DNA of 64,000 nt, taken from NCBI GenBank assembly GCA_963848295.1, contig CAWKDB010000010.1, positions 3,328,001 through 3,392,000 of the forward strand, in the 5' to 3' direction. Positions within the stretch are counted from its first letter, which is position 1; each line of letters begins with the position of its first letter. Source of the stretch: an uncultured delta proteobacterium (lineage in GTDB: Bacteria; Myxococcota_A; Polyangia; Haliangiales; Haliangiaceae). Made by a program: the position numbers and the translations under genes. This document shows, piece after piece, positions 1,832-19,816 of the stretch. The notes under the pieces are model-generated. The model was not told the DNA's origin and did no database searches. It saw nothing but the letters and a program-made list of their open reading frames with translations.

Positions 1832-2284
1832 GTGCGAGCGGTCGAGATGATCGTCGCAACGATCGCCGCGACGGGTTGTGCGGCGTCGCACGTACAGGCT
1901 CCGCGGGTGCCGCGGACGCGACCGACGATCGCCGTGCTCGGGATCGAGGCGGCCGACCGAGACGCTGCGGTCGCGCGCGAGCTCACCGCGGCGTTGCGCG
2001 CCGAAGCCGCATCGCCTCGATCGCGCTATGCGTTGGCGCCACATCGCGAGCGCGAGCTGGCGGAGATGAAGGACCTCGCGAACTGCGCGAACGAGTCGGC
2101 ATCGTGTATGGCGGACATCGGCGCCGACCTCGAGGTCGACTTCATGATCTACGGTCGGCTCGACCACGGCACCGTCAAGCTCGAGCTTATGGATGTGGCC
2201 AAACGGTTCAATCGACGCGCCATCACGGTGCCGATCGCACCCGCCGGGCCGCTCTACGCGCGGCTCGGCGCCACCGTCGATTGA
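1832..2284 (+). CDS. Putative lipoprotein, hypothetical; stop codon lies inside the first copy of the 57-bp repeat
   Basis: ATIAATGC lipobox-like; PTIAVLGIE...C..ESASCMADIG.DLEVDFMIYG resembles the N-domains of myxobacterial surface proteins. Confidence 0.6.
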   Translation: MRAVEMIVATIAATGCAASHVQAPRVPRTRPTIAVLGIEAADRDAAVARELTAALRAEAASPRSRYALAPHRERELAEMKDLANCANESASCMADIGADLEVDFMIYGRLDHGTVKLELMDVAKRFNRRAITVPIAPAGPLYARLGATVD

Positions 2285-2482
2285 ACCGCGTCGCCATGCG
2301 GCGTCGCTGCTGGCGGCGGGCAAGCCGCCACCGTCGATCGAACCGCGCCGCCATGCGGCGTCGCTGCCGGCGGCGGGCAAGCCGCCACCGTCGATCGAAC
2401 CGCGCCGCCATGCGGCGTCGCTGCCGGCGGCGGGCAAGCCGCCACCGTCGATCGAACCGCGCCGCCATGCGGCGTCGCTGCC
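2270..2482. repeat. Tandem array, ~3.7 copies of a 57-bp two-hairpin unit
   Basis: Unit gccaccgtcgatcgaaccgcgccgccatgcggcgtcgctgccggcggcgggcaagcc starts at 2270, 2327, 2384, 2441. Confidence 0.95.
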
Positions 2483-2537
2483 CCCGCCGTCGAGTAATCC
2501 TTTCGCGCGCTGACGCTAGCGTGCTAGGTCTGGCGCT

Positions 2538-4718
2538 ATGTCGGCCGTCGCGCGAGCGCTGTTTTCGTACCGCCCATACTGGGCGGAGCGATTCGGTACG
2601 GCGACGTTCCTGCCGACGACCCGCGCCGAGCTGGACGAGCTTGGCTGGGATAGCTGCGACATCATCCTCGTCACCGGCGACGCGTACATCGATCATCCGA
2701 GCTTCGGCATGGCGCTGGTCGGACGCTTGCTCGAGTCGCACGGCTTTCGAGTCGGCATCCTCGATCAACCCGGGTGGCGAGACCCGGATACGTTTCGCGC
2801 GCTCGGTCCGCCAAATCTATTTTGGGGCGTGACCGCCGGCAACATGGATTCGATGGTCAATCGCTACACCAGCGATCGCAAAGTGCGCTCGGACGACGCC
2901 TACTCGCCCGATGCGCGCGCCGGCCTGCGCCCCGACCGGTCGGTGCTGGTCTATACGCAGCGCTGTCGCGAAGCGTTCCCGGATCAGCCGACGCCGGTCG
3001 TGATCGGCGGCATCGAAGCGAGCCTGCGACGAATCGCGCACTACGACTACTGGTCGGACAAGGTGCGGCGCTCGGTGCTCGCGGAGTCGCGCGCGGACTT
3101 GCTCGTCTACGGCAACGCCGAGCGCGCGATCGTCGAGCTCGCTCATCGCCTCGCAGCGGGCACGCCGATCGGCGAGGTCCGCGATCTGCGCGGCACGTCG
3201 TATCTCATGCCGGCGGGCGCGAAGACCGGCGACTGGGTCGAGGTCGACTCGTCGACCGTCGACGCGCCGGGCAAGGTCGATCCGCCGCGCGATCCGTATG
3301 CGACGGAGGACGAGCGCAAGGCGGCACCGTGCGCGACCGGACAAACCTCCGCACCCGCGCCGCTCGTCCAGCTGCGCCCGCGCAAGGTCGATCGTGCACG
3401 CCAAGTCATCAGGATGCCGAGCTTGGAGCAGGTCACTGCGGATCCGGTGCTGTACGCACACGCGTCGCGCATCCTTCACCTCGAGTCGAATCCGGGCAAC
3501 GCGCGCGCCCTCGTGCAACGCCACGCCAAGACCGACGTCTGGATCAACCCGCCGCCCGAGCCCCTGACCACGCCGGAGATGGACGCGCTCTACGAGCTGC
3601 CTTTCCAGCGCATCCCGCACCCGCGACATCAGGCCGCGAAGATCCCCGCGTTCGAGATGATCAAGCACTCGGTGACGATCCTGCGCGGCTGTTTCGGCGG
3701 CTGCAGCTTCTGCTCGATCACCGAGCACGAGGGCCGGATCATTCAGAGCCGCTCGGAGCAGTCGATCTTGCGCGAGGTCGCACAGATCCGCGACAAGGCG
3801 CCCGGGTTCACCGGCAACATCAGCGACCTCGGTGGCCCGACCGCGAACATGTATCGGATGGCGTGCAAGAGCCGGGAGATCGAGGCCGCTTGCCGCAAGC
3901 CGTCGTGCGTGTTCCCCGACATCTGCGACAACCTCGGCACCGATCACACGCCGCTCGTGTCGCTCTATCGCAAGGCGCGCGCGATTCCGGGCGTGAAGCG
4001 GATCTTCATCGCATCCGGCGTGCGCTACGACCTCGCGGTCCGCTCGCCCGAATGGATCCGCGAGCTCGCGCAGCACCACACCGGCGGCTACTTGAAGATC
4101 GCGCCCGAGCATACCGAACAGGGCCCGCTCGAGCACATGATGAAACCGGGCATCGGCGCGTACGATCGCTTCAAAGAGTTGTTCGACCGATACTCGAAGG
4201 AAGCCGGGAAAGAGCAGTACTTGATTCCGTACTTCATCGCCGCGCACCCGGGCACGACGGATGAAGACATGTTGAACCTCGCGCTCTGGCTCAAGCGCAA
4301 CGGCTTCCGACCAGACCAAGTGCAAGCCTTCCTGCCGTCGCCGATGGCTAGCGCGACCGCGATGTATCACACGGGGTTCTCCCCGCTGCGCTCGCTCAAG
4401 GCCAGGCGGCGCGTCCACGTCGTCAAAGACCTCGCGCAACGCCGGCTACACAAGGCGTTCTTGCGCTACCACGATCCGAACAACTGGCCGATGCTGCGCG
4501 ACGCTCTGCAGCGCATGGGTCGCGCCGACCTCATCGGCGGCGGCAAGAACCACCTCGTGCCGGCGTGGCAACCCACTCACACTGGCTCGGGCGCGAACGC
4601 AAGCCGTGGCCAGTCGCGCGATGGCGCCGACGGCGGCGGCGAAGGTCACCGACGCAAGATCCGCAAGGGCACCGCGTTGACCCAGCACACGGGTTTGCCA
4701 CCGCGCAAGCACCGCTGA
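2538..4718 (+). CDS. ygiQ: YgiQ (UPF0313) family radical SAM protein
   Basis: [39 protein letters not shown] (CxxxCxxC), YFIAAHPG motifs. Confidence 0.92.
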
Positions 4719-4782
4719 TCGCACGAACTAACGCGCGGCGCACGGCGCATCCGAGCGTTGCCCGTCGGCCGCCCGGATTATT

Positions 4783-4798
4783 GACTGAACGTTCGTTC
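4783..4798. promoter_or_regulatory. Putative TetR operator, copy 1 (imperfect palindrome)
   Basis: gactgaa-cg-ttcgttc followed by gataaa; near-copy of the 4906 site. Confidence 0.5.
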
Positions 4799-4905
4799 GA
4801 TAAATGTCTGAAAGCCATGAAAGATACGACGCGCGTGAGGGGTCGTCCAGGTCTCGAGCAAGAAACCGCGTGACAGCGCCGAAGCTGCGAGCTACAACAC
4901 AAATA

Positions 4906-4921
4906 GAATGAATGTTCATTC
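4906..4921. promoter_or_regulatory. Putative TetR operator overlapping the first ATG of tetR
   Basis: Perfect inverted repeat gaatgaa-tg-ttcattc followed by gataaa. Confidence 0.65.
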
Positions 4922-5738
4922 GATAAAATACGCAACGGGTCGGACCGCAACGGGTCGGACCGCAACGGGTCGGACCGCAACGGGTCGGACCGCGACGGGT
5001 CGGACCGCGACGGGTCGGACCGCGACGCGGCGGACCGCGACGGGGCGGACCGCGACGACTAGAGCGCGAGCGACGGCGGAGCGAGTGAGCCCGGCAACGC
5101 GAGGACGACCGCGGGTCGATGACAAGCGGCGGCGGATCTTGGATGCGGCGCTGCGCGTGTTTGCCGACCGCGGCTATCACGGCACGGCGGTGCCCGAAGT
5201 GGCAGAGGCTGCGACGGTTTCGACCGGGACCCTCTATCACTACTTCGCTTCGAAAGAGCGGCTGGTCAACGAGGTGTATCGCGATGCGAAGACCAGGCTC
5301 GCGACGGCGCTGCTCGGTGATCTGCCCGCGCCCGACCCTTATCAGCTCGACGCTGGCGAGGCGTGGTTCGCCGAGCTGTGGCGCCGGCTCGGAGCCTTCG
5401 CGGGCCGCGAGCCCGATGCGTTTCGGTTTCTAGAGATGCAAGACCACGCGCCGTACCTCGACGCCGAGAGCAAACAACTCGAGATCTCGGTGCTCGCTCC
5501 GCTGGTGCTCGTTGGTAACCGACTGAGCGCGCGCGGCGACGACGCGCTGCCGGTCGATGTCGCGATCGCGCTGTTGTGGGGCGCGTTCGTCGGTCTCGTC
5601 AAGGCGAGCCGGCTTGGCTATCTGAAGCTCGACGCGAAACGGCTCGAGCGCGCGGGTGTTGCGTGCTGGCGAATGCTCGCTCCGCAGCTGCCGCGCGCGA
5701 CCGGCCGCAGTAGTTCCGCACAACCTCGTAAAGGATGA
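4908..5738 (+). CDS. TetR/AcrR family transcriptional regulator (alternative start GTG 5085)
   Basis: RGRP...ILDAALRVFADRGYHGTAVPEVAEAATVSTGTLYHYFASKE HTH. Confidence 0.9.
   Translation: MNVHSIKYATGRTATGRTATGRTATGRTATGRTATGRTATRRTATGRTATTRARATAERVSPATRGRPRVDDKRRRILDAALRVFADRGYHGTAVPEVAEAATVSTGTLYHYFASKERLVNEVYRDAKTRLATALLGDLPAPDPYQLDAGEAWFAELWRRLGAFAGREPDAFRFLEMQDHAPYLDAESKQLEISVLAPLVLVGNRLSARGDDALPVDVAIALLWGAFVGLVKASRLGYLKLDAKRLERAGVACWRMLAPQLPRATGRSSSAQPRKG
4931..5057. repeat. 15-bp tandem repeat, 8 copies plus a partial copy (RTATG peptide if translated)
   Basis: cgcaacgggtcggac x4, cgcgacgggtcggac x2, then diverged copies. Confidence 0.95.
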
Positions 5739-5742
5739 TCGC

Positions 5743-6300
5743 ATGACCCAACTCGCTACGTCCCATGTCACCACCGCTCGCCCGCCGTTTACCCTCGATG
5801 CGCTCGCGCGGCTGTCACACGACGCGCTCGATGCGCTCTATCGCAGCGCATCGGTGTCGACGACCATGCGTGCCGCCGATGGTGCGCTCGTCGGGCGCAT
5901 GCTCGCGGTCAAGGGCTTACCGGCTGCGCTCGCGAAGCCGTTGCGACGCTGGACCGGATCGCCGTCGTTCGTGTGGGAGGGCAAGTCGTTCGCGTCGACC
6001 AGCGATACCCGCGGGACCGGGATCAACCGCGTGAATGGCGCGGCCGTGCTCGGCCGCCAAACGCTGTTCGCGTTCGATACATCGTTCGGCCCGTCCGCGA
6101 TCGACGGCAAGCCGACGCTGATCCTCGACTACGACCTCGCGGTCAACCCGAGCTACATCCGCCACGTTCACGACGAAATTCGTGAGGTCTCGCCCGGGGT
6201 GTTCCTCGGCCCGGCGATGTGGAAGACCGCGACGAGCAAGCGCATGGTGCTGTGGTTCGCACTCGACGCCGCGCGCGCGGCGCGGTCGAGGCCGTCGTGA
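5743..6300 (+). CDS. Conserved hypothetical protein
   Basis: aagga RBS then MTQLATSH...; WEGKSF, GINRV, LDYD..NP, DEIREVSPGVFLG; co-oriented with tetR and SDR. Confidence 0.7.
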   Translation: MTQLATSHVTTARPPFTLDALARLSHDALDALYRSASVSTTMRAADGALVGRMLAVKGLPAALAKPLRRWTGSPSFVWEGKSFASTSDTRGTGINRVNGAAVLGRQTLFAFDTSFGPSAIDGKPTLILDYDLAVNPSYIRHVHDEIREVSPGVFLGPAMWKTATSKRMVLWFALDAARAARSRPS

Positions 6301-6402
6301 CCCCTGGCTCCGCGCTCGACTCGGCACGTGCCGGCCGGTCGAGGTCATCGTGAGCCAGGGCCACGCGCTGTGCGCGGTGCGTGTCGTTCCGTCGAGGACG
6401 TC

Positions 6403-7191
6403 GTGACCATCGCGGTCCAGGGCTACGACCATCTGCTGATCACTGGCGCCGCCGGAGCGATCGGTAGTGCGCTCGCCCGCGCGATGCACGCAGCATGGCC
6501 GCGCTGCGAGCTCGCGCTGATCGATCGCGATGGCGACGCACTGGCGGCTCTCGCGCGAGAGCTCGGCGGGCGAGCGAGCGTTCACGCTGGGGATCTACGC
6601 GACCTCGACGCGCTGCCAGCGATCGTCGCCGCGATCGAGCAGACGGCGCCGGTCGACGGACTCATCAACTGCGCCGGCGTCATGAAGGTGCAACACGTCT
6701 CGACGTGGCGGTGGAGCGACGCTCGCGACCTGATGACGATCGACCTGCTTGCTCCGCTGCGGCTGCAGGATCTCGTCGTGCGCGGCATGATCGAGCGCCG
6801 TCGGGGCGTGATCGTCAACGTCGCCAGCATGGCGGGGCGAGTGCCACTACGCGGCGCCGCGTACTACGGCGCATCGAAGGCGGGGCTCGCGATGGCCTCC
6901 GAGATCGCGCGTGCGGATCTCGCGCCGCACGGCGTGCGCGTCGTCACGGTGTATCCTGGGCCGGTCAAGTCAGCGCTGGAAGCGGGCGCGCGCGCGGCCT
7001 GGGGCGGCGGCGGCATCTTGGGACGCCTCGCCCGCAGCGGTGAACCGGACGAGCTCGCGCGCCGGATCATGAGGGCGATCGCAGTCGATGCGCCGCGCGT
7101 GATCTATCCGCGGCTCTATCGCGCAGGATGGGCCGCCACGAACCTCGCGAGCTGGTTTGCGCTGTCGTACGGCCCGCCGCCGATCGCTTGA
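6403..7191 (+). CDS. Short-chain dehydrogenase/reductase
   Basis: TGAAGAIG, INCAG, NVAS and YGASK catalytic motif; gagga RBS before GTG 6403. Confidence 0.9.
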   Translation: MTIAVQGYDHLLITGAAGAIGSALARAMHAAWPRCELALIDRDGDALAALARELGGRASVHAGDLRDLDALPAIVAAIEQTAPVDGLINCAGVMKVQHVSTWRWSDARDLMTIDLLAPLRLQDLVVRGMIERRRGVIVNVASMAGRVPLRGAAYYGASKAGLAMASEIARADLAPHGVRVVTVYPGPVKSALEAGARAAWGGGGILGRLARSGEPDELARRIMRAIAVDAPRVIYPRLYRAGWAATNLASWFALSYGPPPIA

Positions 7192-7367
7192 TCGCGCGCG
7201 CCGGTGGCTGCCGCGGGCTCGCAGCGATCCCGATCGCGCGCGCCGGTGGCTGCCGCGGGCTCGCAGCGATCCCGATCGCGCGCGCCGGTGGCTGCCGCGG
7301 GCTCGCAGCGATCCCGATCGCGCGCGCCGGTGGCCGCCGCGGGCTCGCAGCGATCTCGATCGCGCGC
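7190..7367. repeat. 42-bp tandem repeat, 4 copies plus a partial copy
   Basis: gatcgcgcgcgccggtggctgccgcgggctcgcagcgatccc at 7190, 7232, 7274, 7316. Confidence 0.95.
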
Positions 7368-7373
7368 ATTGCC

Positions 7374-7562
7374 GGCGCGATCGCTGATCACGGGCTGCGG
7401 CGGCCCTTCGCGATCTCGGCGCGGTCGCTGATCACGGGCTGCGGTGGCCTCCGCGATCTCGGCGCGATCGCTGATCACGCGCTGCGGTGAGCTCCGCGAT
7501 CTCGGCGCGATCGCTGATCACGCGCTGCGGAGGCTTCCGGCGTCTCGACGCGATCGCTGATC
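7374..7562. repeat. 43/44-bp tandem repeat, 4 copies plus a partial copy
   Basis: ggcgcgatcgctgatcacg(g/c)gctgcgg...ccgcgatctc at 7374, 7418, 7461, 7504, partial at 7547. Confidence 0.9.
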
Positions 7563-7763
7563 GTACGCGCCGTCGACCGCCGCGGTGTCGGAGCTCTCGT
7601 TGATCGAGCCGGACTCGAGCGCGACGGCATGCGAGCCTCCCGGGAGCGAGTCTCGAGATCGGCTTGACCGCGCAGGTGCTTGATTGCTTGACGTGGCCGG
7701 CGGACATCAGCGCACATCGGGCCTGTCTTGCCCGAGATCCGCTTGATATCCTCGGGCCTTCGC

Positions 7764-9179
7764 ATGGGAGAACCCTTCGCAACGCCCGAGGACGACGATG
7801 GGGTCGCCCTCGGGAGCGTGCTCGACGGCCGTTACCGCATCGATGAGGTGATCGGCATCGGCGGCATGGGCCGGGTCTATCGCGGCGAGCACACCGGCAT
7901 CGGCCGCGCCGTCGCGATCAAGGTGCTCCACGCGGATCTCGGCCGCAACAAGGAGGCCGCACAGCGGTTCCAGCGCGAGGCGCTCGCGTCAGGTCGGCTC
8001 GATCATCCGAACATCGTCGGAGTCAGCGACTTCGGCACGATCGAGCACGTCGGGCTCTACCTCGTGATGGAATCTCTCGAGGGCGAGCCGCTGGGCGATC
8101 GCCTCACCCGCGAGCGCACGATCCACTGGCTCGAAGCGATCGAGATCGCGCGCTACGTGCTGACCGGCCTGCGCCATGCCCACGATCGCGGCGTCGTCCA
8201 TCGCGACATCAAGCCGGACAACATCTTTCTCGCGCGCAAGGACGGCGATCAGATCATCAAGATCCTCGACTTCGGGATCGCGAAGCTCTACGCCGGGTCG
8301 ACCGAGGATCCCGCGATGACACGCGCCGGGCTGACGGTCGGGACGCCCGCGTACCTGTCGCCGGAACAAGCGGTCGGCGGCTTGATCACACCGGCCTCGG
8401 ATCTCTATTCGATGAGCATCGTGCTGTACGAGATGCTGACCGGCCGCGCGCCGTTCGAGGACAAAGATCCGCTCGCGATGCTGACCGCGCACGTCAGCCG
8501 CGAGCCGCCCGCGATGAGCGACATCGCACCTGCCATCCAACTACCGCCAGGGCTCGAGGATGTCGTGCGCCGCGGCATGGCGAAGATGGCGGCGGAACGG
8601 ACGAGCTCCGCGATCGAATACATCGCTGAGCTCGACGCGGTCGTCGAGGCCGCCGGGTTCGCGCGGCCCAACCGCGACGCGCGCGAAGCCAGCGGCTCGC
8701 GCACGAGGGCGACCGCGACTCCCGCGGCCGCGGTGCCGGCGGTGGCGCCGGTCGAGCCCGCGCCGGCTGCGCGTGCCCAGACCGCCCCGGTGCGCGCGCC
8801 GGTCGGCGAGTCGGTCTCGAAGAAGCAGTTGGTCGTCGGCGGCATCGTGCTCGTGCTCGCGCTGTTGTTCGCGCTGATCTTGCTCGCGTGGCGCAACGGT
8901 CGCACGCAGCACCCCACGCCGGCCGACGGTTCGGCGGCTCCGATCGCGAGTGTCCCGGCTTCAGCTCCGTCGAGCGATGCCGAGCGCGAGCTGCGCATGA
9001 AGGCCGCGCTGCACGATCTCGAGGACAGCAAGTCGTGCGCCGACAAGAGAGCCGCGGTCGCGACGCTCGACGAGCTCGCCGATGCGCGCGCGGTCCCCTC
9101 GCTGAGGGCGCGTGCCAAAGATGCGTGCGTGAAGACCGAGGTCGAAGCGTTGCTCAAGAAGCTGACAACGCCAAAGTAG
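7764..9179 (+). CDS. Membrane-anchored Hanks-type Ser/Thr protein kinase
   Basis: GIGGMGRVY, VAIK, HRDIKPDN, DFG, GTPAYLSPE; TM helix LVVGGIVLVLALLFALILLAW; C-terminal Cys pair. Confidence 0.93.
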   Translation: MGEPFATPEDDDGVALGSVLDGRYRIDEVIGIGGMGRVYRGEHTGIGRAVAIKVLHADLGRNKEAAQRFQREALASGRLDHPNIVGVSDFGTIEHVGLYLVMESLEGEPLGDRLTRERTIHWLEAIEIARYVLTGLRHAHDRGVVHRDIKPDNIFLARKDGDQIIKILDFGIAKLYAGSTEDPAMTRAGLTVGTPAYLSPEQAVGGLITPASDLYSMSIVLYEMLTGRAPFEDKDPLAMLTAHVSREPPAMSDIAPAIQLPPGLEDVVRRGMAKMAAERTSSAIEYIAELDAVVEAAGFARPNRDAREASGSRTRATATPAAAVPAVAPVEPAPAARAQTAPVRAPVGESVSKKQLVVGGIVLVLALLFALILLAWRNGRTQHPTPADGSAAPIASVPASAPSSDAERELRMKAALHDLEDSKSCADKRAAVATLDELADARAVPSLRARAKDACVKTEVEALLKKLTTPK

Positions 9180-9187
9180 GCGTCGGC

Positions 9188-10033
9188 TCACGCGCTCGCG
9201 GTCTTCCAGTCCTTCTTCGAGAACGTGTCGAAGTCGATGACGAGCGCGATCGCCTTGTCGTCGGCATCGACCGCCCAATACGCCGTGTACTCGCCGTTGC
9301 CGGGGGCGAGCGCGAGCGCGCGCCGGCCATCGATCAGCGGGATCTCGGTCGGCTCGAGCCCGGCGACGGCCGGGACCGCGAGCACGCCGGTCGCTGCGCC
9401 GGTGTCGACGGTGCGGGCTCGCCCCGCGCCGGCAGCACCGCCGGACGGCGGTGCGGTTGGATCGACGAGCGCGATCCAACCACTCGTCACCGGAACGCGG
9501 GGCAGATCATCGGGCGACCTCGGCGGCTTCTGACCTCTGTAGTGCGCGACCGTCCAGCGCGCGATCGGCGGCCGGCCGACGTGCACGACGACGGCAGCGA
9601 GGCGCTGCTTCGCACCGTCGATCGAGCCCCGACCATCGGTCGCGATCGACGTCATCGCGCGAAACATGCCGGTGCCGACCGGGCGATCGAACACGCGCCA
9701 ACTCTTCGGCACGGCGGGGTCGCCGATCGCGATCGCGCCCGAGCTGACCGGCAGCGCGGTCGTGAGCCATTTCACATCGATCTTGTAAGCGCCGAACTTT
9801 TCGCCGTAGCGGAGCAGGCGGGCGACATCGCGCGGTGCCGCGAGCTCGTCGCGTTGCGCGGGGGGCGGCGGTGGTGCGGGCGGCGCCGGCGTCGTGACCC
9901 GAGTCGACTTCGGCTTTGCGACGCGCTTGGCCGCCGGCGTCGTGGCCCGAATCGACTTCGGCTTTGCGACGCGCTTGGCCGCCGGCTCTTTCGCCGCCGC
10001 CTTCGGTCTCGACTTGGCCTTCGTCTTCGCCAC
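9188..10033 (-). CDS. DUF4241-like protein with Lys/Ala/Pro-rich N-terminus and in-frame 57-bp element
   Basis: LPVSSGAIAIGDP, RLAAV, G.GEY..YWAVD....IALVIDF pattern. Confidence 0.65.
   Translation of the reverse strand: MAKTKAKSRPKAAAKEPAAKRVAKPKSIRATTPAAKRVAKPKSTRVTTPAPPAPPPPPAQRDELAAPRDVARLLRYGEKFGAYKIDVKWLTTALPVSSGAIAIGDPAVPKSWRVFDRPVGTGMFRAMTSIATDGRGSIDGAKQRLAAVVVHVGRPPIARWTVAHYRGQKPPRSPDDLPRVPVTSGWIALVDPTAPPSGGAAGAGRARTVDTGAATGVLAVPAVAGLEPTEIPLIDGRRALALAPGNGEYTAYWAVDADDKAIALVIDFDTFSKKDWKTASA
9407..9466 (-). repeat. Dispersed copy of the 57-bp element, in-frame in the DUF4241-like gene
   Basis: gtcgatccaaccgcaccgccgtccggcggtgctgccggcgcggggcgagcccgcaccgtc; 49/60 identical to the 2270 unit. 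Confidence 0.85.
9885..9986. repeat. 48-bp tandem duplication (AAKRVAKPKSxRxTTP x2)
   Basis: Units start at 9891 and 9939. Confidence 0.9.
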
Positions 10034-10091
10034 GCGCGAAACCTAACACGCCGGGTAGATCGTCCGCCTACACCACGCGTTGACACGCGAC

Positions 10092-11009
10092 ATGAAGCCG
10101 TATTGGACACTGCTCGCATTGGTCGGCTTGGGTGGAACGTCATTCGCGGATGACGATGCGCGGCCCGTCGCCACCGGCGAGCTCAGCTATGTCCGTGACT
10201 CGGTGCGCGGCGTCGCGCAGGACTACTTGGTGCTGCCGTCGGGCGGTGAGCTCGTCGGCGACATGAAGTTCGTCATGGCGGATCCGCTGCTCGGCGGCAA
10301 GGGGCTGCAGTTCACCGACCTCGCCTTGTTCGAGCTCGCCGGCCGCTGGTCGTTCGGCAAACAGCTCGAGCTCGCCTCGCACGTCGCATTCTTGGCGAAG
10401 CAGCCGTCGTATACCGACGAGAAGACCTGGCAGAGCGTCGATGTCGTGGGCCGCGCCGGCATCGGGCATCACGGCGCGCTCGCGTTGTCAGGCGCGGGTG
10501 GCCATCTGATGGATCACGATGGCGAGTGGCTGCGCCAGGGCCTCGACCTCGAGTGGAAGAAGACGATCGATCGCGAGTTCCTCTCGTTCGACATGCACGG
10601 CGGCGTCGATAGCATCGAGCTCGTGACGCCGGGACAACAAGCGGCGTACCTCAGCGAGGCCAGCGTCGCGGCGGCCGCGCTGTTTCGCGAGCCGAGCGGA
10701 CATTGGGGCGCGTGGATCGGTTTGTCCTATGCGCTGCCGTTCGCTCATCACGGCATCGATCCGACGAGTCAGCTCGCGCTCGATCCGCAGCCCCGCCTCG
10801 ATTTCCACATCGGCACCGCGCTGTCGCTCGTGGACAACTGGGACTTGTTCGTCGACTTTGCGGTCATCGATCGCGGCGACCTGTCGAACCCGGCGACCCG
10901 GTTGCCGATCCTCGACGGCGGGTTCGACCAGCGCCAGCTCGTGCTCGGGGTGACCCGCCACTTCGCGGGCGCTACGAGAAATCGCTACCAGTACGCGATG
11001 GCGGAGTAG
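10092..11009 (+). CDS. Secreted hypothetical protein, probable outer-membrane beta-barrel
   Basis: Signal peptide MKPYWTLLALVGLGGTSFA; alternating hydrophobic beta-strand pattern, ...QLVLGVTRHF near the C-terminus. Confidence 0.6.
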   Translation: MKPYWTLLALVGLGGTSFADDDARPVATGELSYVRDSVRGVAQDYLVLPSGGELVGDMKFVMADPLLGGKGLQFTDLALFELAGRWSFGKQLELASHVAFLAKQPSYTDEKTWQSVDVVGRAGIGHHGALALSGAGGHLMDHDGEWLRQGLDLEWKKTIDREFLSFDMHGGVDSIELVTPGQQAAYLSEASVAAAALFREPSGHWGAWIGLSYALPFAHHGIDPTSQLALDPQPRLDFHIGTALSLVDNWDLFVDFAVIDRGDLSNPATRLPILDGGFDQRQLVLGVTRHFAGATRNRYQYAMAE

Positions 11010-11117
11010 ACCTCGGTACCCGGGTGGGTAGATGCGTACTCAGCCCTACTCGACTGGCGAACGCTTACATATCGAGGATCATGGACAAGTGTGCCGCGCC
11101 CCGACGTGAGGGTGACC

Positions 11118-11133
11118 TGGCGCGGGCTTCGCA
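11118..11133 (+). promoter_or_regulatory. sigma54 -24/-12 promoter of second fliA-like gene
   Basis: TGGCGC-GGGCT-TCGCA; -12 C is 14 nt before ATG 11146. Confidence 0.6.
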
Positions 11134-11145
11134 CATGGCGGCGGC

Positions 11146-11820
11146 ATGGACGTCATCGACCGCCAAACTGCGCGAGATCAGCTGATTTCTGACTACGTCG
11201 GCATGGCGCGCAACATCGCGCTGAAGATGGCGCGCCGCTATCCAGCGCACGTCGACCGCGACGACATCGTGGCGGCCGCGATGCTCGGCCTGACCGAGGC
11301 GGCGAGCCGGTTCGACGAGTCGCGACGCGAGCCGTTCATGTCGTTCGCCGAACGCCGAGTCCGTGGCGCCGTGATCGACGAGCTGCGCCGCGGCGACGTG
11401 TTGACCCGCAATGCTCGCAAGCTCGCGCGCAAGGTCAACGCCGCTCGGCGCGATCTCGAGCAGCGCGGGATCGAGGCGACCGACGAGCTCGTCGCCGAGG
11501 CCTGCGGCGTATCGCTCGAGGAATTCGTCACCGACATCAAGCCACGCGTCACCGTCGAACATAAGGGTCTCAACGGGACGCTGGTCGCGACCGAGCCTCG
11601 CCAGGATGCGCAGTTGATCGAGCAGCGCGAACGCCAAGACGTCAAGGACGCGATGGGCGAGCTCCCGGCGCGCGAGTTGACTTGCTTGGAGCTGCACTAC
11701 TTCGAGGACCGGCCGTACTACGACATCGGACGGTCGATCGGTGTCACGCCAGCTCGGGTCTATCAGCTCTGCAGTCGCGCGCTCGAACGCGTGCGCACCA
11801 CGCTCGCGCACGCGGCCTAG
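11146..11820 (+). CDS. FliA/WhiG-family sigma factor, second paralog
   Basis: DDIVAAAMLGLTEAASRFD..R.EPFMSFAERRVRGAVIDELRRGD, GVTPARVYQL; visibly similar to fliA at 39199. Confidence 0.85.
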   Translation: MDVIDRQTARDQLISDYVGMARNIALKMARRYPAHVDRDDIVAAAMLGLTEAASRFDESRREPFMSFAERRVRGAVIDELRRGDVLTRNARKLARKVNAARRDLEQRGIEATDELVAEACGVSLEEFVTDIKPRVTVEHKGLNGTLVATEPRQDAQLIEQRERQDVKDAMGELPARELTCLELHYFEDRPYYDIGRSIGVTPARVYQLCSRALERVRTTLAHAA

Positions 11821-11994
11821 AGATTTGCTGACCGCATCGTTGTTCAACGGGTATGCGATCACCCACCGCGGTAACAAAATACCCGGGGTGCTATCCCAGT
11901 GCTAACCATGCGAATCTAAGCTTGATTCAGTCATGTCCGCGCGATCATTCGATCGCCCTTACAAGTGGATCAAGCGCCAATCAAATCCGGAGAG

Positions 11995-12010
11995 TGGCCC
12001 AGCGCTCGCA
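11995..12010 (+). promoter_or_regulatory. sigma54 promoter of FleQ-like activator
   Basis: TGGCCC-AGCGC-TCGCA; -12 C is 14 nt before ATG 12023. Confidence 0.55.
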
Positions 12011-12022
12011 CTATCACTCCGC

Positions 12023-13042
<1,020 letters not shown>

Positions 13043-13045
13043 ACG

Positions 13046-14476
<1,431 letters not shown>

Positions 14477-14496
14477 GTTTCCTCGGGGGAGGCGAG

Positions 14497-15657
14497 CTAG
14501 CTGCGTCCGGGCAGCCTCACGTGGAACGTGGGGCCTTCAGGCTGCGACTTGTACTCGATGGACCCGCCGTGAGCTTCGCACGCGAGGCGGCAGAAGTACA
14601 AGCCGATGCCGCGCTTGCCATTCTTGCCCTTGGCGTACTTCGCAAACAGGTTGTTCTCCAGGTCCGGCGGCACGAGGGGACCGGTGTTGTGGACGACGAT
14701 CTCGACGCTCTCGGGGTCGTGGTCGTGGAGCGGGCGCGCCGACAGCCGGATCTCGCCGTTCGCGTTGCAGTAGCGCGCGGCGTTGCCGACCAGGTTGTGC
14801 AGGACGCGCTCGATCAGGGCGACGTCGAGGTGGCCGTTGAGCTTCTGGTCGCAGTCGACGTTGCACTTGATGTTGCGGCCCATCGCCGCCGCGTGGACGT
14901 CGATCACCTCGAGCAGCAGCGCGCGTACGGGCGCCGTGGTGCACGCAGGTTTGACGCTGGCGTCCTCGAACCGCGCGATGTCGACGAAGTTCGCGACCAA
15001 GCCGCTCATCCGGCGCAACGCGTTGAGCGTCGAGGTCAGCGCCTGGCCCTCATCGGCTTCGAGCGTGATCGAGCCGCTGATGTACGTGAGGTTCGACAGC
15101 GCGACCGCGAGGCCGTTGTTGAGGTCGTGGGCGAGCATCGCGGCGGCTTCGGCGCCGTACGCGAGCAAGCGGTCCGCGCGCTCGCGAGCGAGGCGGGATT
15201 CGATGTAGGCCTGCTGCGTACGCGCAGCGGCGATCATCCGGCGGCGCAGCTCGGCGATCACCGCCGGCTTCGTCATCACATCGTCGGCGCCGGCATCGAA
15301 GCAGGTCGCGCGGAAGTCTTCATCGTCTTGCCCGCTGAGCACCGACACCCACACCGCCGAGCCGTGAAGCTCCTTGAGCCGGCGCACGACCTCGAGACCG
15401 CTCGTCGGCATGTCGAAGTCGACGAGCGCGAGATCCGGCGGCGTGGTCTCGGCGAGCGCGATCGCGGGCTTGCCGTCCTCGGCGGTCATCACGTGGAAGC
15501 CGACCCGAGACAGGGCATTCGCGATCGCGCGGCGGACGCGAGGGTCATCGTCGACGACAAGGATGCGAACCCCGGCCAGCTGAGGCAGCGGGTGGGCCCC
15601 CGACATCGATGTGGTCGGTTCGGGGTGATCCAACAAGCTCGCGATCGCGTTCGACAC
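14497..15657 (-). CDS. Hybrid REC-histidine kinase
   Basis: REC (VVDDD, DFDMP, KP); H-box AHDLNN; NLVGNAARY, NTGP, GIGLYFC. Confidence 0.88.
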   Translation of the reverse strand: MSNAIASLLDHPEPTTSMSGAHPLPQLAGVRILVVDDDPRVRRAIANALSRVGFHVMTAEDGKPAIALAETTPPDLALVDFDMPTSGLEVVRRLKELHGSAVWVSVLSGQDDEDFRATCFDAGADDVMTKPAVIAELRRRMIAAARTQQAYIESRLARERADRLLAYGAEAAAMLAHDLNNGLAVALSNLTYISGSITLEADEGQALTSTLNALRRMSGLVANFVDIARFEDASVKPACTTAPVRALLLEVIDVHAAAMGRNIKCNVDCDQKLNGHLDVALIERVLHNLVGNAARYCNANGEIRLSARPLHDHDPESVEIVVHNTGPLVPPDLENNLFAKYAKGKNGKRGIGLYFCRLACEAHGGSIEYKSQPEGPTFHVRLPGRS

Positions 15658-15669
15658 GCCAAGGGGCTT

Positions 15670-15685
15670 TGCGAGCGACGTGCCA
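15670..15685 (-). promoter_or_regulatory. sigma54 promoter of HK-RR operon
   Basis: TGGCAC-GTCGC-TCGCA on the minus strand; -12 C is 14 nt before GTG 15657. Confidence 0.7.
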
Positions 15686-15787
15686 GTAACGGTCGGTGCG
15701 CTGACGAGAGTTAGCCGCGATGAGAGCCGCGTTACGTCAAACTCGCCGACACTTTACGGCATCGGGGTCCGGCCGAATCTCTCGGTG

Positions 15788-17071
15788 ATGCCGAGTAGCG
15801 TCGCCCAAGCCCTCTCGTCGTTGGCACCTTCGCCGCCGGTCGCAGTGGTCGATACGTTGCTCGACGCCGCGATCGGGTCCGACGCCGACTTCGTGTGGAT
15901 CGAGCCCGTCCCGATGGCCGAAGAGCTCTATCTGATCTCGATCGAGAGCCAGGGTCAGGTGATCGCGACCGCTTCGATCGACGCGCTGCTCGCGCTGTCG
16001 GTGATCGCTCGGTTGGCGTTCATCTCCGGAGTCGACCTCACCGCGCCGACGGTCGTCACCGGTACCGCGCGGGTCAAGGGCCGCGGGCGCGAGTGCGACG
16101 TCGTTTGCACGTTGCGGCCCGGCACCGAGGTGCGCGCCGAGGTGATGTTCGTCAAACGCGGACCGCGACTCGTCGCGGGCGAACGGCACGAGCTCGGCGA
16201 CGGAGATCGTGTCGGTCACTATCGAATCATCGAACGACTCGGAGCAGGTGGCATGGGCAGCGTGTACAAGGTCGAGCACGTCACGCTCGGTCGGCTCTAC
16301 GCGCTCAAGGTCTTGCACCGCACCGTGCTAGAGCGCGATCCCCAGAGCGTCGATCGGTTCCTGCGCGAAGCGAGGGCGGCGTCGCGCATCCAGCATTCGC
16401 ACATCGTCGACGTGTTCGACTTCGGGTTCGTGGCCGACGGTCGGCCGTACTTCGTGATGGAGATGCTACCGGGCATCAGCCTCGCCGACCTGATCGACGA
16501 CGCGGCGCTCGAACCGGCGCGCGCACTCGAGATCGCGCGCCAGCTCGGCGAGGCGCTCGCGGCGGCTCACGAGCACGGCGTGATCCATGCCGACGTCACG
16601 CCGTCGAACGTGCTGGTCACCGAGCTCGACGACAAGACGATCGTCAAGCTCGTCGACTTCGGCCTCGCCGAGCTGCGCGAACCGAACGTCGTGCCCGAGG
16701 AGCCGGTCGCGAGCGACTTCGTGCTCGGTACGCCGTGCTACGTGTCGCCCGAACAACTGCGCGGCATGCCCGTGACCGAGCGCTCCGATCAATACGCGCT
16801 CGGCGTCGTGCTGTACGAGATGATCGTCGGCGCACCGCCGTTCACCGACACGAATCTGCGCGCGCTGTGCATGAAGCACATCAACGATGCGGTGCCCGAC
16901 GTCCACAGCAAGTTCGGCCCGGTGCCGGCGGAGCTGTCGAAGTTCATCCAGCGCTGCATGGCGAAGTCGCCGTCGGCGCGTTATCCGAGCACGCGCGCGA
17001 TGCTCGGCGATCTCGACATCGTCACCAAGCTCGTCGAACGCCGTGGCTGGCGTCGTTGGCTGACCACGTGA
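15788..17071 (+). CDS. Ser/Thr kinase fused to a degenerate GspE/PilB-type N-terminal domain
   Basis: GAGGMGSVY, YALK, HADVTPSN, DFG, GTPCYVSPE; N-terminal VDTLLDAAI...WIEP, VIARLAFISGVDL. Confidence 0.8.
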   Translation: MPSSVAQALSSLAPSPPVAVVDTLLDAAIGSDADFVWIEPVPMAEELYLISIESQGQVIATASIDALLALSVIARLAFISGVDLTAPTVVTGTARVKGRGRECDVVCTLRPGTEVRAEVMFVKRGPRLVAGERHELGDGDRVGHYRIIERLGAGGMGSVYKVEHVTLGRLYALKVLHRTVLERDPQSVDRFLREARAASRIQHSHIVDVFDFGFVADGRPYFVMEMLPGISLADLIDDAALEPARALEIARQLGEALAAAHEHGVIHADVTPSNVLVTELDDKTIVKLVDFGLAELREPNVVPEEPVASDFVLGTPCYVSPEQLRGMPVTERSDQYALGVVLYEMIVGAPPFTDTNLRALCMKHINDAVPDVHSKFGPVPAELSKFIQRCMAKSPSARYPSTRAMLGDLDIVTKLVERRGWRRWLTT

Positions 17072-17080
17072 GGCTAGTCC

Positions 17081-17674
17081 ATGCCCGATGACCATCCCGC
17101 CACGCCACGTCCCGTCGTCGTCTGCGTCGATGACGATCCCGAGATGCTTGCCGCGTTGCTGCGCACGCTGCGCAAGATGCCGATCGAGTTGATCTCGACC
17201 TCCGAGCCCGCACAAGCGCTCGCGTGGGTCGGTGAACGCGACATCGCGGTCCTCGTGTCGGACTACGAGATGCCCATGATGAACGGCGCCGAGCTTGCCG
17301 CGGCGGCGCGCCGCGCGCGTCCCGAAACGGTGCGCGTGCTGATGACCGGCCGGCAGACGCTCGACACCGCGGTCGATGGCATCAACCAGGGCGAGGTGTT
17401 TCGTTACGTCCAGAAGCCGTTCGATCCGAAGCGGATGGTTCAGGTCGTGACCGAGGCGGTCGCGCGCCACCAGGAGCTCGTGTCGGTGTCGAGCGAGCGC
17501 GATCGCGCGGTGCGCCGCGACCGGATCGTCGCCGAGCTCGAGTCCGAGCATCCGCACATGACGAGCGTCGCGCGCGAGTCCGACGGCACCTACATCGTGC
17601 CCGTCACGCCGCACTCCGCGGTCGCCGGGTTGGGCCTCGACGCGATCATCGCGCTCGCGGGGCGCGTCCGATGA
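17081..17674 (+). CDS. Response regulator (REC plus short helical extension)
   Basis: VCVDDD, SDYEMP, LMTG, QKPFD. Confidence 0.85.
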   Translation: MPDDHPATPRPVVVCVDDDPEMLAALLRTLRKMPIELISTSEPAQALAWVGERDIAVLVSDYEMPMMNGAELAAAARRARPETVRVLMTGRQTLDTAVDGINQGEVFRYVQKPFDPKRMVQVVTEAVARHQELVSVSSERDRAVRRDRIVAELESEHPHMTSVARESDGTYIVPVTPHSAVAGLGLDAIIALAGRVR

Positions 17675-17746
17675 CGACGCTGGCGGAATTGACGGCGAGC
17701 GGTGGCGCTCGCGTCGCTAACCGCGCGGCACCCCAGCGATCGCGTG

Positions 17747-17762
17747 CGGCATGGTCGTTGCT
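17747..17762 (+). promoter_or_regulatory. sigma54 promoter of fliL-pse operon
   Basis: CGGCAT-GGTCG-TTGCT; -12 C is 19 nt before ATG 17780. Confidence 0.7.
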
Positions 17763-17779
17763 GTTGGAGTCCACTACCT

Positions 17780-18265
17780 ATGTCTGACGAGCCCGCCGTC
17801 AAACCGCCCGAACTGGCGAAGAGCAAGACCTCCAAAGTCGTGCTCGCGTTGCTCGTGCTCAACCTCGGCGCCAGCGGCTTCGGTGTGTTCAAGCTGCTCA
17901 CCGCGACCCCGGCCGAGGCCGCGACCGTCGCGAAAGAGCCGCCACCTCCGACCAACGAGGTGACCGGCCCGGTGATGAGCTTCGATCCGTTCGTGGTCAA
18001 CCTCGACGAGCCCGGCACGTCTCGCTACTTGAAGGTCACGCTCCAGGTCGAGCTCGAGTCGCCCGACGCGGCGGAGGCAGTCGAGAAGAGCAAGCAGCTC
18101 ATTCGCGACACGATCCTCAGCCACCTCTCGGGCCTGCACGTCAAAGACACGCTCGGCGCGGAAGCGAAGGACAAGATCCGCAGCGAGCTGATGACCCGCG
18201 TCGAGAAGGTCCTCGGCAAGAACAAGATCAAGCGGATGTTCTTCCAAGAATTCGTCGTCCAGTAG
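17780..18265 (+). CDS. fliL: Flagellar basal body-associated protein FliL
   Basis: N-terminal TM, FVVNL...RYLKV, IRD, K..IRSEL, FQEFVVQ C-terminus. Confidence 0.9.
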   Translation: MSDEPAVKPPELAKSKTSKVVLALLVLNLGASGFGVFKLLTATPAEAATVAKEPPPPTNEVTGPVMSFDPFVVNLDEPGTSRYLKVTLQVELESPDAAEAVEKSKQLIRDTILSHLSGLHVKDTLGAEAKDKIRSELMTRVEKVLGKNKIKRMFFQEFVVQ

Positions 18266-18275
18266 CGAGCAAACC

Positions 18276-19319
18276 ATGGCGAAGCCCATCACCATCGGAC
18301 GTCCCGTCGGTCCCGGCGAACCGCCGTTCATCGTCGCGGAGCTGTCCGCGAATCACCTAGGGAGTCTCGAGCGAGCCCTCGCGATCGTCGATGCGGCGGC
18401 CGATGCCGGGTGCGACGCGATGAAGCTCCAGACGTTCACTCCATCGGCCATGACGCTCGAGATGGACAAAGGTGATTTTCATATCGCCGACGGTCCGTGG
18501 CAGGGCCGGTCGCTGTGGGATCTCTACGACGAGGCGCACACGCCGTGGGAGTGGCACGCGCCGCTGTTCGCACGCGCCGCCGCGCGCGGCATGATGTGCT
18601 TCTCGACGCCGTTCGACGAGCAAGCGGTCGAGCAACTCGATCGGCTCGGCGCGCCGGCGTTCAAGGTCGCGTCGTTCGAGCTCGTCGATCTCGAGTTGAT
18701 CGCCGCGTGCGCGAGGACCGGCAAGCCGTTGATCATGTCGACCGGGATGGCCTCCGATGAAGAGATCGGCGAGGCGATCGAGACCGCGCGCTCGGCGGGC
18801 GCCGGTGGCATCGCGCTCCTGCACTGCGTGAGCGGCTATCCGACGCCGCCGGAGCAGACCAACTTGCGCCGGCTCGACGCGCTCGCGCAGCTCGGTACCG
18901 TCGTCGGCATCTCCGATCACTCGCCCGGCTCGACCGTGCCGATCGCCGCGGTCGCTCGCGGTGCCACGATCGTCGAGAAGCACCTGACGCTCGCGCGCGC
19001 CGACGGCGGCCCGGATGCGGGGTTTTCGCTCGAGCCGGCCGAGATGGCCGAGGTCGTACGGGGCTGCAAGATGGCGTGGGCCGCGCTCGGCGATGGCTCG
19101 TCCGTCCGGCCGAAGGCCGAAGCGGGCTCGCGCAAGTTTCGTCGTTCGCTCTATGCCACCGCCGACATCGCGCCCGGCGAGGCGTTCGGTCGCGACAACA
19201 TTCGCTCGATCCGCCCTGGCCTCGGCTTGCCGCCGCGTGACTTGCCGCGCGTGATCGGTCGCGCCGCGAGGGTGGCGATCGCGAAGGGCACGCCGCTCGC
19301 GTGGGAGCTGATCGCGTGA
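18276..19319 (+). CDS. pseI: Pseudaminic acid synthase
   Basis: FIVAELSANHLG, KLQT, HTPWEWH, KVASFE, GISDH, EKHLTL, C-terminal SAF domain RSIRPGLG. Confidence 0.9.
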   Translation: MAKPITIGRPVGPGEPPFIVAELSANHLGSLERALAIVDAAADAGCDAMKLQTFTPSAMTLEMDKGDFHIADGPWQGRSLWDLYDEAHTPWEWHAPLFARAAARGMMCFSTPFDEQAVEQLDRLGAPAFKVASFELVDLELIAACARTGKPLIMSTGMASDEEIGEAIETARSAGAGGIALLHCVSGYPTPPEQTNLRRLDALAQLGTVVGISDHSPGSTVPIAAVARGATIVEKHLTLARADGGPDAGFSLEPAEMAEVVRGCKMAWAALGDGSSVRPKAEAGSRKFRRSLYATADIAPGEAFGRDNIRSIRPGLGLPPRDLPRVIGRAARVAIAKGTPLAWELIA

Positions 19320-19816
19320 CCGTGGCGCTGCGCAAAGCTCGCCCGCTCGACTGCCGGCGCGTGTGGGAATGGAGCTGCTCGCCGGACGCGCGCGCTAGCT
19401 CGCTCGATCCGCGGCCGATTCCGATCGCCGAGCACGAGCAGTGGTTTCGCGAGCGCGTCGCGCGTGACGGCATGTGGATCGTCGAAGCGAACCTCGCCGA
19501 CGTCGGCGTCGTGCGGATCGATCCAACCGCGCTGCCATTCGACCGGATCTCGATCGCGATCACCTCGGCGGCGCGCGGTCGCGGCATCGGTCGTCGCGCG
19601 GTCGCCGCCGCGTGCGAAGCGTGGCAACGCCCGGTGTTCGCCGAGGTCCTGCCCGACAACGCGGCGAGCCGAGCCTGTTTCGAAGCGTGCGGGTTCGTCG
19701 TGCGCGACACCGGCCCCAGAGTCGATCCCACCGCACTGCCATTCGGCAGCGCTGCCGGCCGCGGGCAAGCCGCGACCGTCGTCACTTACGCGTGGAGCCC
19801 AGCATGCAAGCCATGA
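19316..19816 (+). CDS. GNAT acetyltransferase, PseH-like, carrying in-frame 57-bp element
   Basis: EHEQWF, ARGRGIG, NAASRACFEACGF; overlaps the pseI stop (GTGA). Confidence 0.75.
   Translation: MTVALRKARPLDCRRVWEWSCSPDARASSLDPRPIPIAEHEQWFRERVARDGMWIVEANLADVGVVRIDPTALPFDRISIAITSAARGRGIGRRAVAAACEAWQRPVFAEVLPDNAASRACFEACGFVVRDTGPRVDPTALPFGSAAGRGQAATVVTYAWSPACKP
19721..19780 (+). repeat. Dispersed copy of the 57-bp element, in-frame in the GNAT gene (partial 5' copy at 19517-19541)
   Basis: gtcgatcccaccgcactgccattcggcagcgctgccggccgcgggcaagccgcgaccgtc; 51/60 identical to the 2270 unit. Confidence 0.85.

Follow-up and report, generated by a model that had tools for sequence, protein, structure and literature searches.

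Rickettsia palindromic elements (RPEs) are palindromic repeats that lie in frame in unrelated genes and add peptides to their products (PMC10969869; PMC3733652). REP hairpins accept GYAG variants at their foot (PMC3733652), and RAYTs combine guide-directed cleavage with GTAG feet (PMC8266576); intragenic REPs are known (PMC3733652), and in-frame inserts occur in tnpA genes of subclass 2.4 (10.1101/279083). IS200/IS605 elements follow a TAM/TEM-with-guide logic in which the guides covary (PMC10055086), and IS91 makes no duplication and targets CTTG, GTTC or CTCG (PMC13181058). The spread and the insertion sites of REP- and RPE-type repeats have so far been poorly resolved.

Here we characterize a 57-bp element that, like RPEs, is a dispersed palindrome in frame in unrelated genes. 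However, RPE-1 is described as about 150 bp long, with 44 copies, nearly half of them in ORFs, and a conserved peptide, whereas the present element is about 70% intragenic and read in four frames. It also departs from RPEs in its free-living host genus, the dozens of its sites that form filled/empty pairs and the association of its target motif with the linker. With REPs and REPINs it shares tandem arrays and a GYAG motif at the foot of a 7–8 bp hairpin (here on the bottom strand), and the hairpin 2 core of its subfamily A, GGGG-CTTG-CCCC, equals that of Pseudomonas SBW25 REP group I as given in PMC3337134, Table 1. Unlike a REPIN, it consists of two different hairpins in series rather than two inverted REPs; unlike either, it is mostly intragenic, its GYAG is internal to the unit, and no RAYT gene flanked by repeats was found in the MAGs searched, which are incomplete. 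Its likeness to IS200/IS605 and PATE elements, as far as PMC10055086 describes them, lies in two subterminal hairpins, a left host motif that appears to be matched by a right element motif, a covarying putative guide and the lack of terminal inverted repeats. Unlike these systems, it is only 57 bp long, its putative guide would sit between the hairpins, and hairpin 2 takes in its right motif; no autonomous parent was found for it. The literature searched, for the most part outside subscription journals, contained no account of this element.

Copies in the window and across the genus

The window, a 64-kb stretch of the genome of a soil myxobacterium, contains the following features.

1832..2284, + strand: upstream ORF without Pfam or NCBIfam match; its stop codon lies inside array unit 1
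2277..2493, + strand: element array of three 57-nt units (TCGA cores at 2277, 2334 and 2391) and a deleted fourth
9188..10033, − strand: DUF4241 host gene (PF14025 family)
9405..9465, − strand: single in-frame copy of the element within the DUF4241 gene, made up of 57 nt and a second core
19316..19816, + strand: GNAT acetyltransferase host gene, PseH-like, scoring below the TIGR03585 cut-off
19518..19541, + strand: eroded 5′ element fragment, in the same GNAT gene as the full copy
19722..19782, + strand: single in-frame copy of the element, close to the 3′ end of the GNAT gene

The first-pass annotation had reported that the array unit recurs in the two genes, and its coordinates and identities (49/60 for the DUF4241 copy and 51/60 for the GNAT copy, each against the array unit) were correct. 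TRF gives a period of 57 with 3.8 copies at 2269-2482; the fourth unit, from 2448, is internally deleted, with 42 nt to the closing TCGA at 2490. As had been claimed, no stop codon interrupts the repeat unit in any of the six frames, although the first copy carries a TGA, the stop of ORF 1832-2284. In-frame insertion, proposed for the element at large, holds for the DUF4241 and GNAT copies, which are clean 18–19 amino acid insertions relative to orthologs, but not for the array, which lies at a gene end and in intergenic DNA. In the close relative G100, the orthologous site carries a pair of short, degenerate units, about 44 nt, in the array's place. The DUF4241 copy is common to the near relative L025 and missing from 9 more distant orthologs; in the AlphaFold model it forms a low-pLDDT loop after strand 147-150, which agrees with the suggestion that the element adds loops. 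The GNAT copy is present in G100 and corresponds to a 19-amino-acid gap in 10 orthologs, and the fragment at 19518..19541 stands in place of about six host codons, with the length unchanged relative to G100.

A search of the source genome (G000, 85% complete) with a model of the element, at E<=0.01, identified the further copies that had been expected, 174 at 150 loci, compared with 0 in the reversed genome. The unit is 57 bp long with two hairpins in series, adding 19 amino acids when in frame, and unit lengths are mostly multiples of three (51, 54, 57 or 60 nt). Eleven of the 150 loci are arrays, all 11 of them head-to-tail, and their copy number varies between orthologous sites. The window's other arrays (15, 42, 43 and 48 bp), unlike the 57-bp element, showed no dispersal. 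Subfamily A has the core TCG(A); subfamily B, also of 57 nt and with 35 copies, has the dissimilar core CTTGTC. Neither a terminal inverted repeat nor an extended direct repeat above the level of shuffles was detected at the element ends.

Of 90 other genomes of the genus, 62 contain subfamily A, B or both, and a search with model R1 gave no match in 149 genomes from outside the genus, so that the predicted lineage specificity stands for the genomes searched. Viral contigs gave 0 matches and plasmids 4 weak partial ones, and a pattern scan of metagenomes returned 21 element loci with no recurring neighbour gene.

Filled and empty sites, and selection within genes

We compared the source genome with G100, which is ~89% identical, at 116 G100 loci; 22 had no ortholog, 4 lay at an edge and 3 were too far, leaving 87 comparable. 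Thirty-eight were exactly empty, 20 inexactly empty and 29 shared; thus, two thirds of the comparable sites are not common to these close relatives. Because many sites are empty in a sister species, the element has moved recently, in line with the first-pass annotation, which had called it mobile. Contigs of four DNA sequencing runs did not usefully span the sites. An exact empty site has 57 nt less and one TCG(A) core, the core being present twice when the site is filled. The annotation had likened the flanking Val-Asp codons to a target duplication. A flanking repeat is indeed seen, but it fits better with a host target plus a copy carried by the element, and the repeat is probably element-borne rather than a true duplication. 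A host motif on the left, a similar motif at the right end and no duplication agree with the 5 exact empty sites of subfamily B (among 20 loci; all (C/G)TTGT(C/A)) and with the pattern of positions 0 and 57 in A, the cut site being blurred by the ~11% divergence.

With genes predicted by a codon model built for this analysis, 105 of the 150 loci (about 70%) lie within ORFs. Copies in either orientation are represented, and the four main reading frames encode four unrelated peptides. The phases of these copies agree with the availability of TCGA (chi-square p=0.55), and no orientation bias was seen along the largest contig. Copies erode. In five shared in-gene copies, 15/90 second codon positions had diverged inside the element, compared with 11/314 in the flanks. 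Together with covariation and the four reading frames, this bears out the proposal that selection acts on structure and not on peptide.

Hairpins, linker and strand

Both stems covary, as the compensatory changes noted earlier had indicated. The pairs 41-51, 43-49, 39-53, 37-55, 40-52 and 35-57 are the top six among all position pairs, a covariation score reached by 0/500 shuffles, and stem 2 runs on into the right-hand core (pairs 35-57 and 33-59). The C-A mismatch, by contrast, is not conserved as had been stated, the 112 unique copies having C-A in 24 and C-G in 61; it reads as a T.G wobble on the opposite strand.

Between the two hairpins lies a linker that pairs and covaries with the core. 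As expected of a DNA guide of the IS200/IS605 or RAYT type, positions 57 (p=1.6e-4) and 35 (p=9e-4) covary with the host base before the left core (position 0) in 115 copies, a covariation that gives p=0.045 when the empty site is used for the host base, and the linker-core pair 33-59 is G-C in subfamily A and A-T in B. In subfamily A, core positions 58 and 1 showed no covariation with linker position 34 (p 0.1-1).

The bottom strand folds more stably in 89/112 copies (A.C 85 vs G.T 49), and the foot of hairpin 1 on this strand is GCAG in 67/112 and TCAG in 22/112 copies of subfamily A and GTAG in subfamily B. The two strand readings conflict: folding favours the bottom strand, and the junctions favour a top-strand cut 3′ of the core.

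Mobilization and competing explanations

The explanation we favour, with a probability of roughly 0.6, is that the element is a non-autonomous two-hairpin repeat moved as single-stranded DNA by an HUH (Y1-type) transposase acting in trans. The enzyme would bind the sequence-conserved first hairpin, and the 3–4 nt linker would serve as a DNA guide with two partners, the core at the right end of the element and a corresponding site in the host, which is (R)TCG for subfamily A and (C)TTGTC for B. Excision or copying of the unit would yield a 57-nt circle, to be joined beside the host motif without true duplication; arrays would arise by re-insertion or rolling-circle copying. With a unit length divisible by three and few stops, in-gene insertions survive as Gly/Ala/Pro-rich loops, so that even coding DNA, 85% of the genome, would become a safe target; copies later erode by in-frame deletions.

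Against this reading stand the lack of orientation bias, the conflict between the two strand readings and the absence of covariation at linker position 34 in subfamily A. The HUH candidates of the genome comprise NNW-type Y1 proteins, such as the one at C10:3806671-3807414 and a multicopy family, two RAYT-2.1-like genes and a four-copy NHHH family. Y1 genes are present in 88/91 genomes of the genus, but their number does not track that of the element: G100 has 143 elements and 2 Y1 genes, G037 has 34 Y1 genes and 0 elements, and neither G091 (100% complete, 51 B matches) nor G098 (7 A matches) has a PF01797 match at E<=0.001. NNW-type Y1 genes occur in 82/91 genomes and RAYT-2.1-like ones in 50/91, the latter missing from several element-rich genomes; the distributions of these two Y1 queries showed no co-occurrence with the element, and the matches listed for the 91 genomes include just one strong IS200-class TnpA. 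At the places searched, no enzyme of the RAYT, IS200/IS605, IS91, IS110 or integron classes was found between copies of the element. None of 9 Y1 genes is flanked by copies (nearest copy 2–34 kb away), nor is any of 63 enzyme loci scanned; Y1 flanks lacked element matches, six further divergent HUH genes had no copies nearby, and G000 contains no left-half/right-half element pair enclosing a gene. In G100, purK holds two copies that lie 1.8–2.3 kb from a Y1 gene, a proximity that we took as chance. The IS91 targets, as described, resemble the element cores; the Y2 transposase of IS91, found in 38/91 genomes, was not found in 12 element-rich genomes, and no match to the element was seen in its flanks.

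A site-specific recombinase of the IS110 bridge, tyrosine or serine type that integrates a 57-bp circle by way of a short core common to circle and target would account for a core identical at both junctions and single at the empty site, for the exact length and for the head-to-tail arrays, and the genome has 15 tyrosine-recombinase matches. We nevertheless consider it unlikely, as the five best of these lie 6–63 kb from the nearest copy and G000, at its 85% completeness, has no IS110 DEDD domain and no integron integrase (TIGR02249) above the cut-off. An attC site is a single long hairpin with RYYYAAC/GTTRRRY ends that works with IntI; the element folds as two. Its lack of terminal inverted repeats likewise separates it from a classical MITE. 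A DDE-type MITE making a 2–4 bp target duplication (CG or TCGA) would explain why the empty core (T33 C26 G32 A27 of 38) is doubled when filled, but A4 of the left core is invariant (38/38) even though 11 empty sites carry another base there, the last base of the right core of subfamily B differs from the empty site in 3/5 cases while the left core matches in 4/5, and DDE enzymes do not generally need two covarying hairpins; this makes such an origin quite improbable.

Reverse transcription followed by insertion through pairing with the 5′ flank, as in group II introns, would be in line with the complementarity of target and linker, with the sense bias among in-gene copies (55:34, p=0.03) and with reverse transcriptases in 78/91 genomes. 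It seems very unlikely, however, given that the element-rich G100, G043, G051, G082 and G094 have no reverse transcriptase match at E<=1e-8, that Rfam has no match in the window, that the bottom strand forms the better fold, and that copies in either orientation are common. Least credible is a host-maintained RNA or peptide motif spread by gene conversion, a reading already largely refuted by the empty sites. The stems retained by in-gene copies (85% Watson-Crick pairs) would suit it; the unshared sites, the unrelated peptides, the erosion and an in-gene share below expectation (82/120 vs 85%, p=4e-6) would not.

Beyond the favoured single-stranded DNA mechanism, we tentatively raise the possibility of a genus-wide superfamily of minimal self-targeting single-stranded DNA transposons, with the target encoded in the 3–4 nt linker and codon-multiple length selected at the level of the element, mobilized by an enzyme distinct from the RAYT and IS200 classes described so far and forming a standing source of new protein loops.

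The dozens of filled/empty pairs fix the unit and its target to within a few bases, and the two co-resident subfamilies amount to a natural guide-swap. With a 57-nt substrate and few candidate enzymes, the question of mobility is now testable. About 100 proteins per genome, PurK among them, have been rewritten by the element, and, should the linker turn out to act as a guide, the element would constitute a very small programmable unit of in-frame insertion.

The element within the window and genome

The 57-bp two-hairpin repeat (the element) occurs at the three sites that the first-pass annotation had described: a tandem array, and single copies in a DUF4241 gene and a PseH-like GNAT gene, 49/60 and 51/60 identical to the array unit, which contains no stop codon in any of six frames. 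Features considered in the window are as follows.

~2270-2482, tandem array of the element
19518-19541, eroded fourth copy class
4931-5057, 7190-7605 and 9884-9986, local tandem arrays with periods of 15, 42, 43 and 48 bp, not scattered through the genome
17702-23049, consecutive genes for FliL-like, NeuB, PseH-like GNAT, methyltransferase and MptE-like proteins, similar to a cluster for nonulosonic-acid glycosylation

The proposal of in-frame insertion held for the two single copies, as ortholog alignments showed a clean gap at the site: 9/10 DUF4241 orthologs lacked 18-19 residues, and 10/11 GNAT orthologs were short by exactly 19. It did not hold for the array, because the TGA ending ORF 1832-2284 sits in the first array unit. 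The DUF4241 insert is a low-confidence loop in the AlphaFold model (mean pLDDT 67.5), and relatives of this gene carry Kofleriaceae/Haliangiales titles.

An iterative HMM search seeded with the copies in the window (E<=0.01) gave 174 matches over the 7.78-Mb genome, against 0 when the genome was reversed. They represent 150 loci (139 single, 11 head-to-tail arrays), and 120 copies are full-length and ungapped. By gene calls from our own codon model, 105 loci lie inside ORFs (in 97 genes, 7 of these struck more than once), 17 overlap an ORF end and 28 are intergenic. Phases of interior copies (46 sense phase 1, 23 antisense phase 1, 11 antisense phase 0, 8 sense phase 0 and 1 phase 2) track the availability of TCGA (p=0.55). 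Slightly fewer copies than expected lie within genes (82/120 vs 85%). Lengths are multiples of three in 85/85 complete in-gene copies, partly by construction, and in 41/51 copies outside genes. Other dispersed 16-mers, CAAAAGAGACAGCGTC and AGTGAACACCGTCCCC, occur at 33-46 loci and suggest additional repeat families.

Empty sites, structure and target

A relative about 89% identical, G100, has 143 element matches. Of 116 loci compared, 38 are exactly empty in the genome under study, every one by 57 nt and 28 within genes; a further 20 are empty but not exactly so, 29 are occupied in both genomes, 22 have no ortholog and 7 were unusable. We conclude that the element is real and recently mobile. 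Arrays of four in our genome stand opposite single copies in G100; therefore, arrays expand at the site where they lie. Deletion has eroded many of the copies that are shared. Identity between filled and empty sites falls within ~5 bases either side of the insertion (23/38 at +5 and 25/38 at -3, vs 29-36/38 farther off), a dip for which loop tolerance and error-prone joining are candidate causes.

Stem 1 comprises element positions 12-19/24-31 and stem 2 positions 35-43/49-57, with 33-59 and 32.60 extending stem 2 into the right core, the short motif at that junction. Sequence conservation is higher in stem 1 (0.85) than in stem 2 (0.77), and the bottom-strand fold is the more stable in 89/112 copies. 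With kinship among copies ignored, stem pairs held the six highest ranks of APC-corrected mutual information (112 unique copies), and 0/500 shuffles equalled the stem covariation score (27 aligned copies). Second codon positions had changed at 15/90 within vs 11/314 outside the element in five shared in-gene copies, a small sample that gives no sign of peptide-level constraint. Both the covariation and the selection on structure rather than peptide that had been read from three copies are thus borne out.

A second 57-nt form, subfamily B (core CTTGTC), has 35 copies in the genome (E<=0.001), including the following.

Contig C10: 157231-157291, 73704-74051 and 3927610-3927900
Contig C2: 158770-159060

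Its first 3-4 bases vary and in some arrays resemble the right flank. Of 20 G100 loci compared, five have an exact empty site in our genome, with empty core (C/G)TTGT(C/A); 7 are shared, and the rest are inexact or without ortholog. At the exact sites the left core matches the host in 4/5, and the right core is unlike the empty site in 3/5. For the main form, subfamily A, the empty core reads T33 C26 G32 A27 among the 38 exact sites, and the host base 5′ of the left core is biased to element position 57, without copying that position. The inter-hairpin linker and the core vary together, reading TGC/TCG or GCG among A-like families and TAC/GTC in subfamily B. From the core and host comparison and this co-change, we infer that the linker would serve as an internal DNA guide, and that insertion would proceed without true duplication. 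Of the target duplication first suggested, the core at both junctions stands, and its second copy is probably carried by the element itself.

Distribution, candidate mobilisers and known systems

Search models R1 and R2 matched 47/90 and 57/90 other genus genomes (union 62/90), some by single weak matches, with counts per genome being at least values. R1 matched 0/149 genomes outside the genus, in keeping with a lineage-specific element. Among the matches listed, match-derived copy lengths were 54 (9), 51 (4) and 57 (2) in G039, 60 (14) and 54 (1) in G061, 57 in 8/8 in G089 and 57 in 6/8 in G078; G016 and G076 were mixed (55-59), with multiples of three in only 4/13.

On the anatomy of the element alone, an HUH enzyme is the best fit as mobiliser. 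Genes of the single-strand transposase class Y1 (PF01797) are near-universal across the genus genomes. None of those examined is flanked by copies, extending the earlier report of no mobilising enzyme in the window, and a PF01797 search had no match in element-bearing G091 and G098. IS110, IntI, IS91 and RT are each missing either from our genome or from key element-rich genomes. The two-hairpin fold also sets the element apart from integron attC sites, which form a single long hairpin. A divergent HUH-like gene with an NHHH motif, which escapes PF01797 and is bordered by short, reiterated end motifs of its own in inverted orientation, has four copies:

C2:1135603
C10:3663347
C10:3190666
C10:3948021

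Almost every genus genome carries between 1 and 37 copies of a Y1 family with a YVLNNW motif (L001-L009); the family scores under NCBIfam RAYT and IS200 cut-offs, and several of its genes have a long upstream inverted repeat in common. Near an integrase lies an IS91-type transposase that appears to be split in two, with one part on each strand (L218, C10:52169-55762).

Compared with known systems, as described in PMC3733652, 10.1101/279083, PMC8266576, PMC13181058, PMC10969869, PMC10055086 and PMC3337134, the element falls outside REPINs and MITEs by their defining features. It resembles a minimal IS200/IS605 PATE in its working, yet falls outside PATEs on the same kind of ground. It also works like a RAYT substrate, and its protein-editing outcome is the same as that of RPEs.
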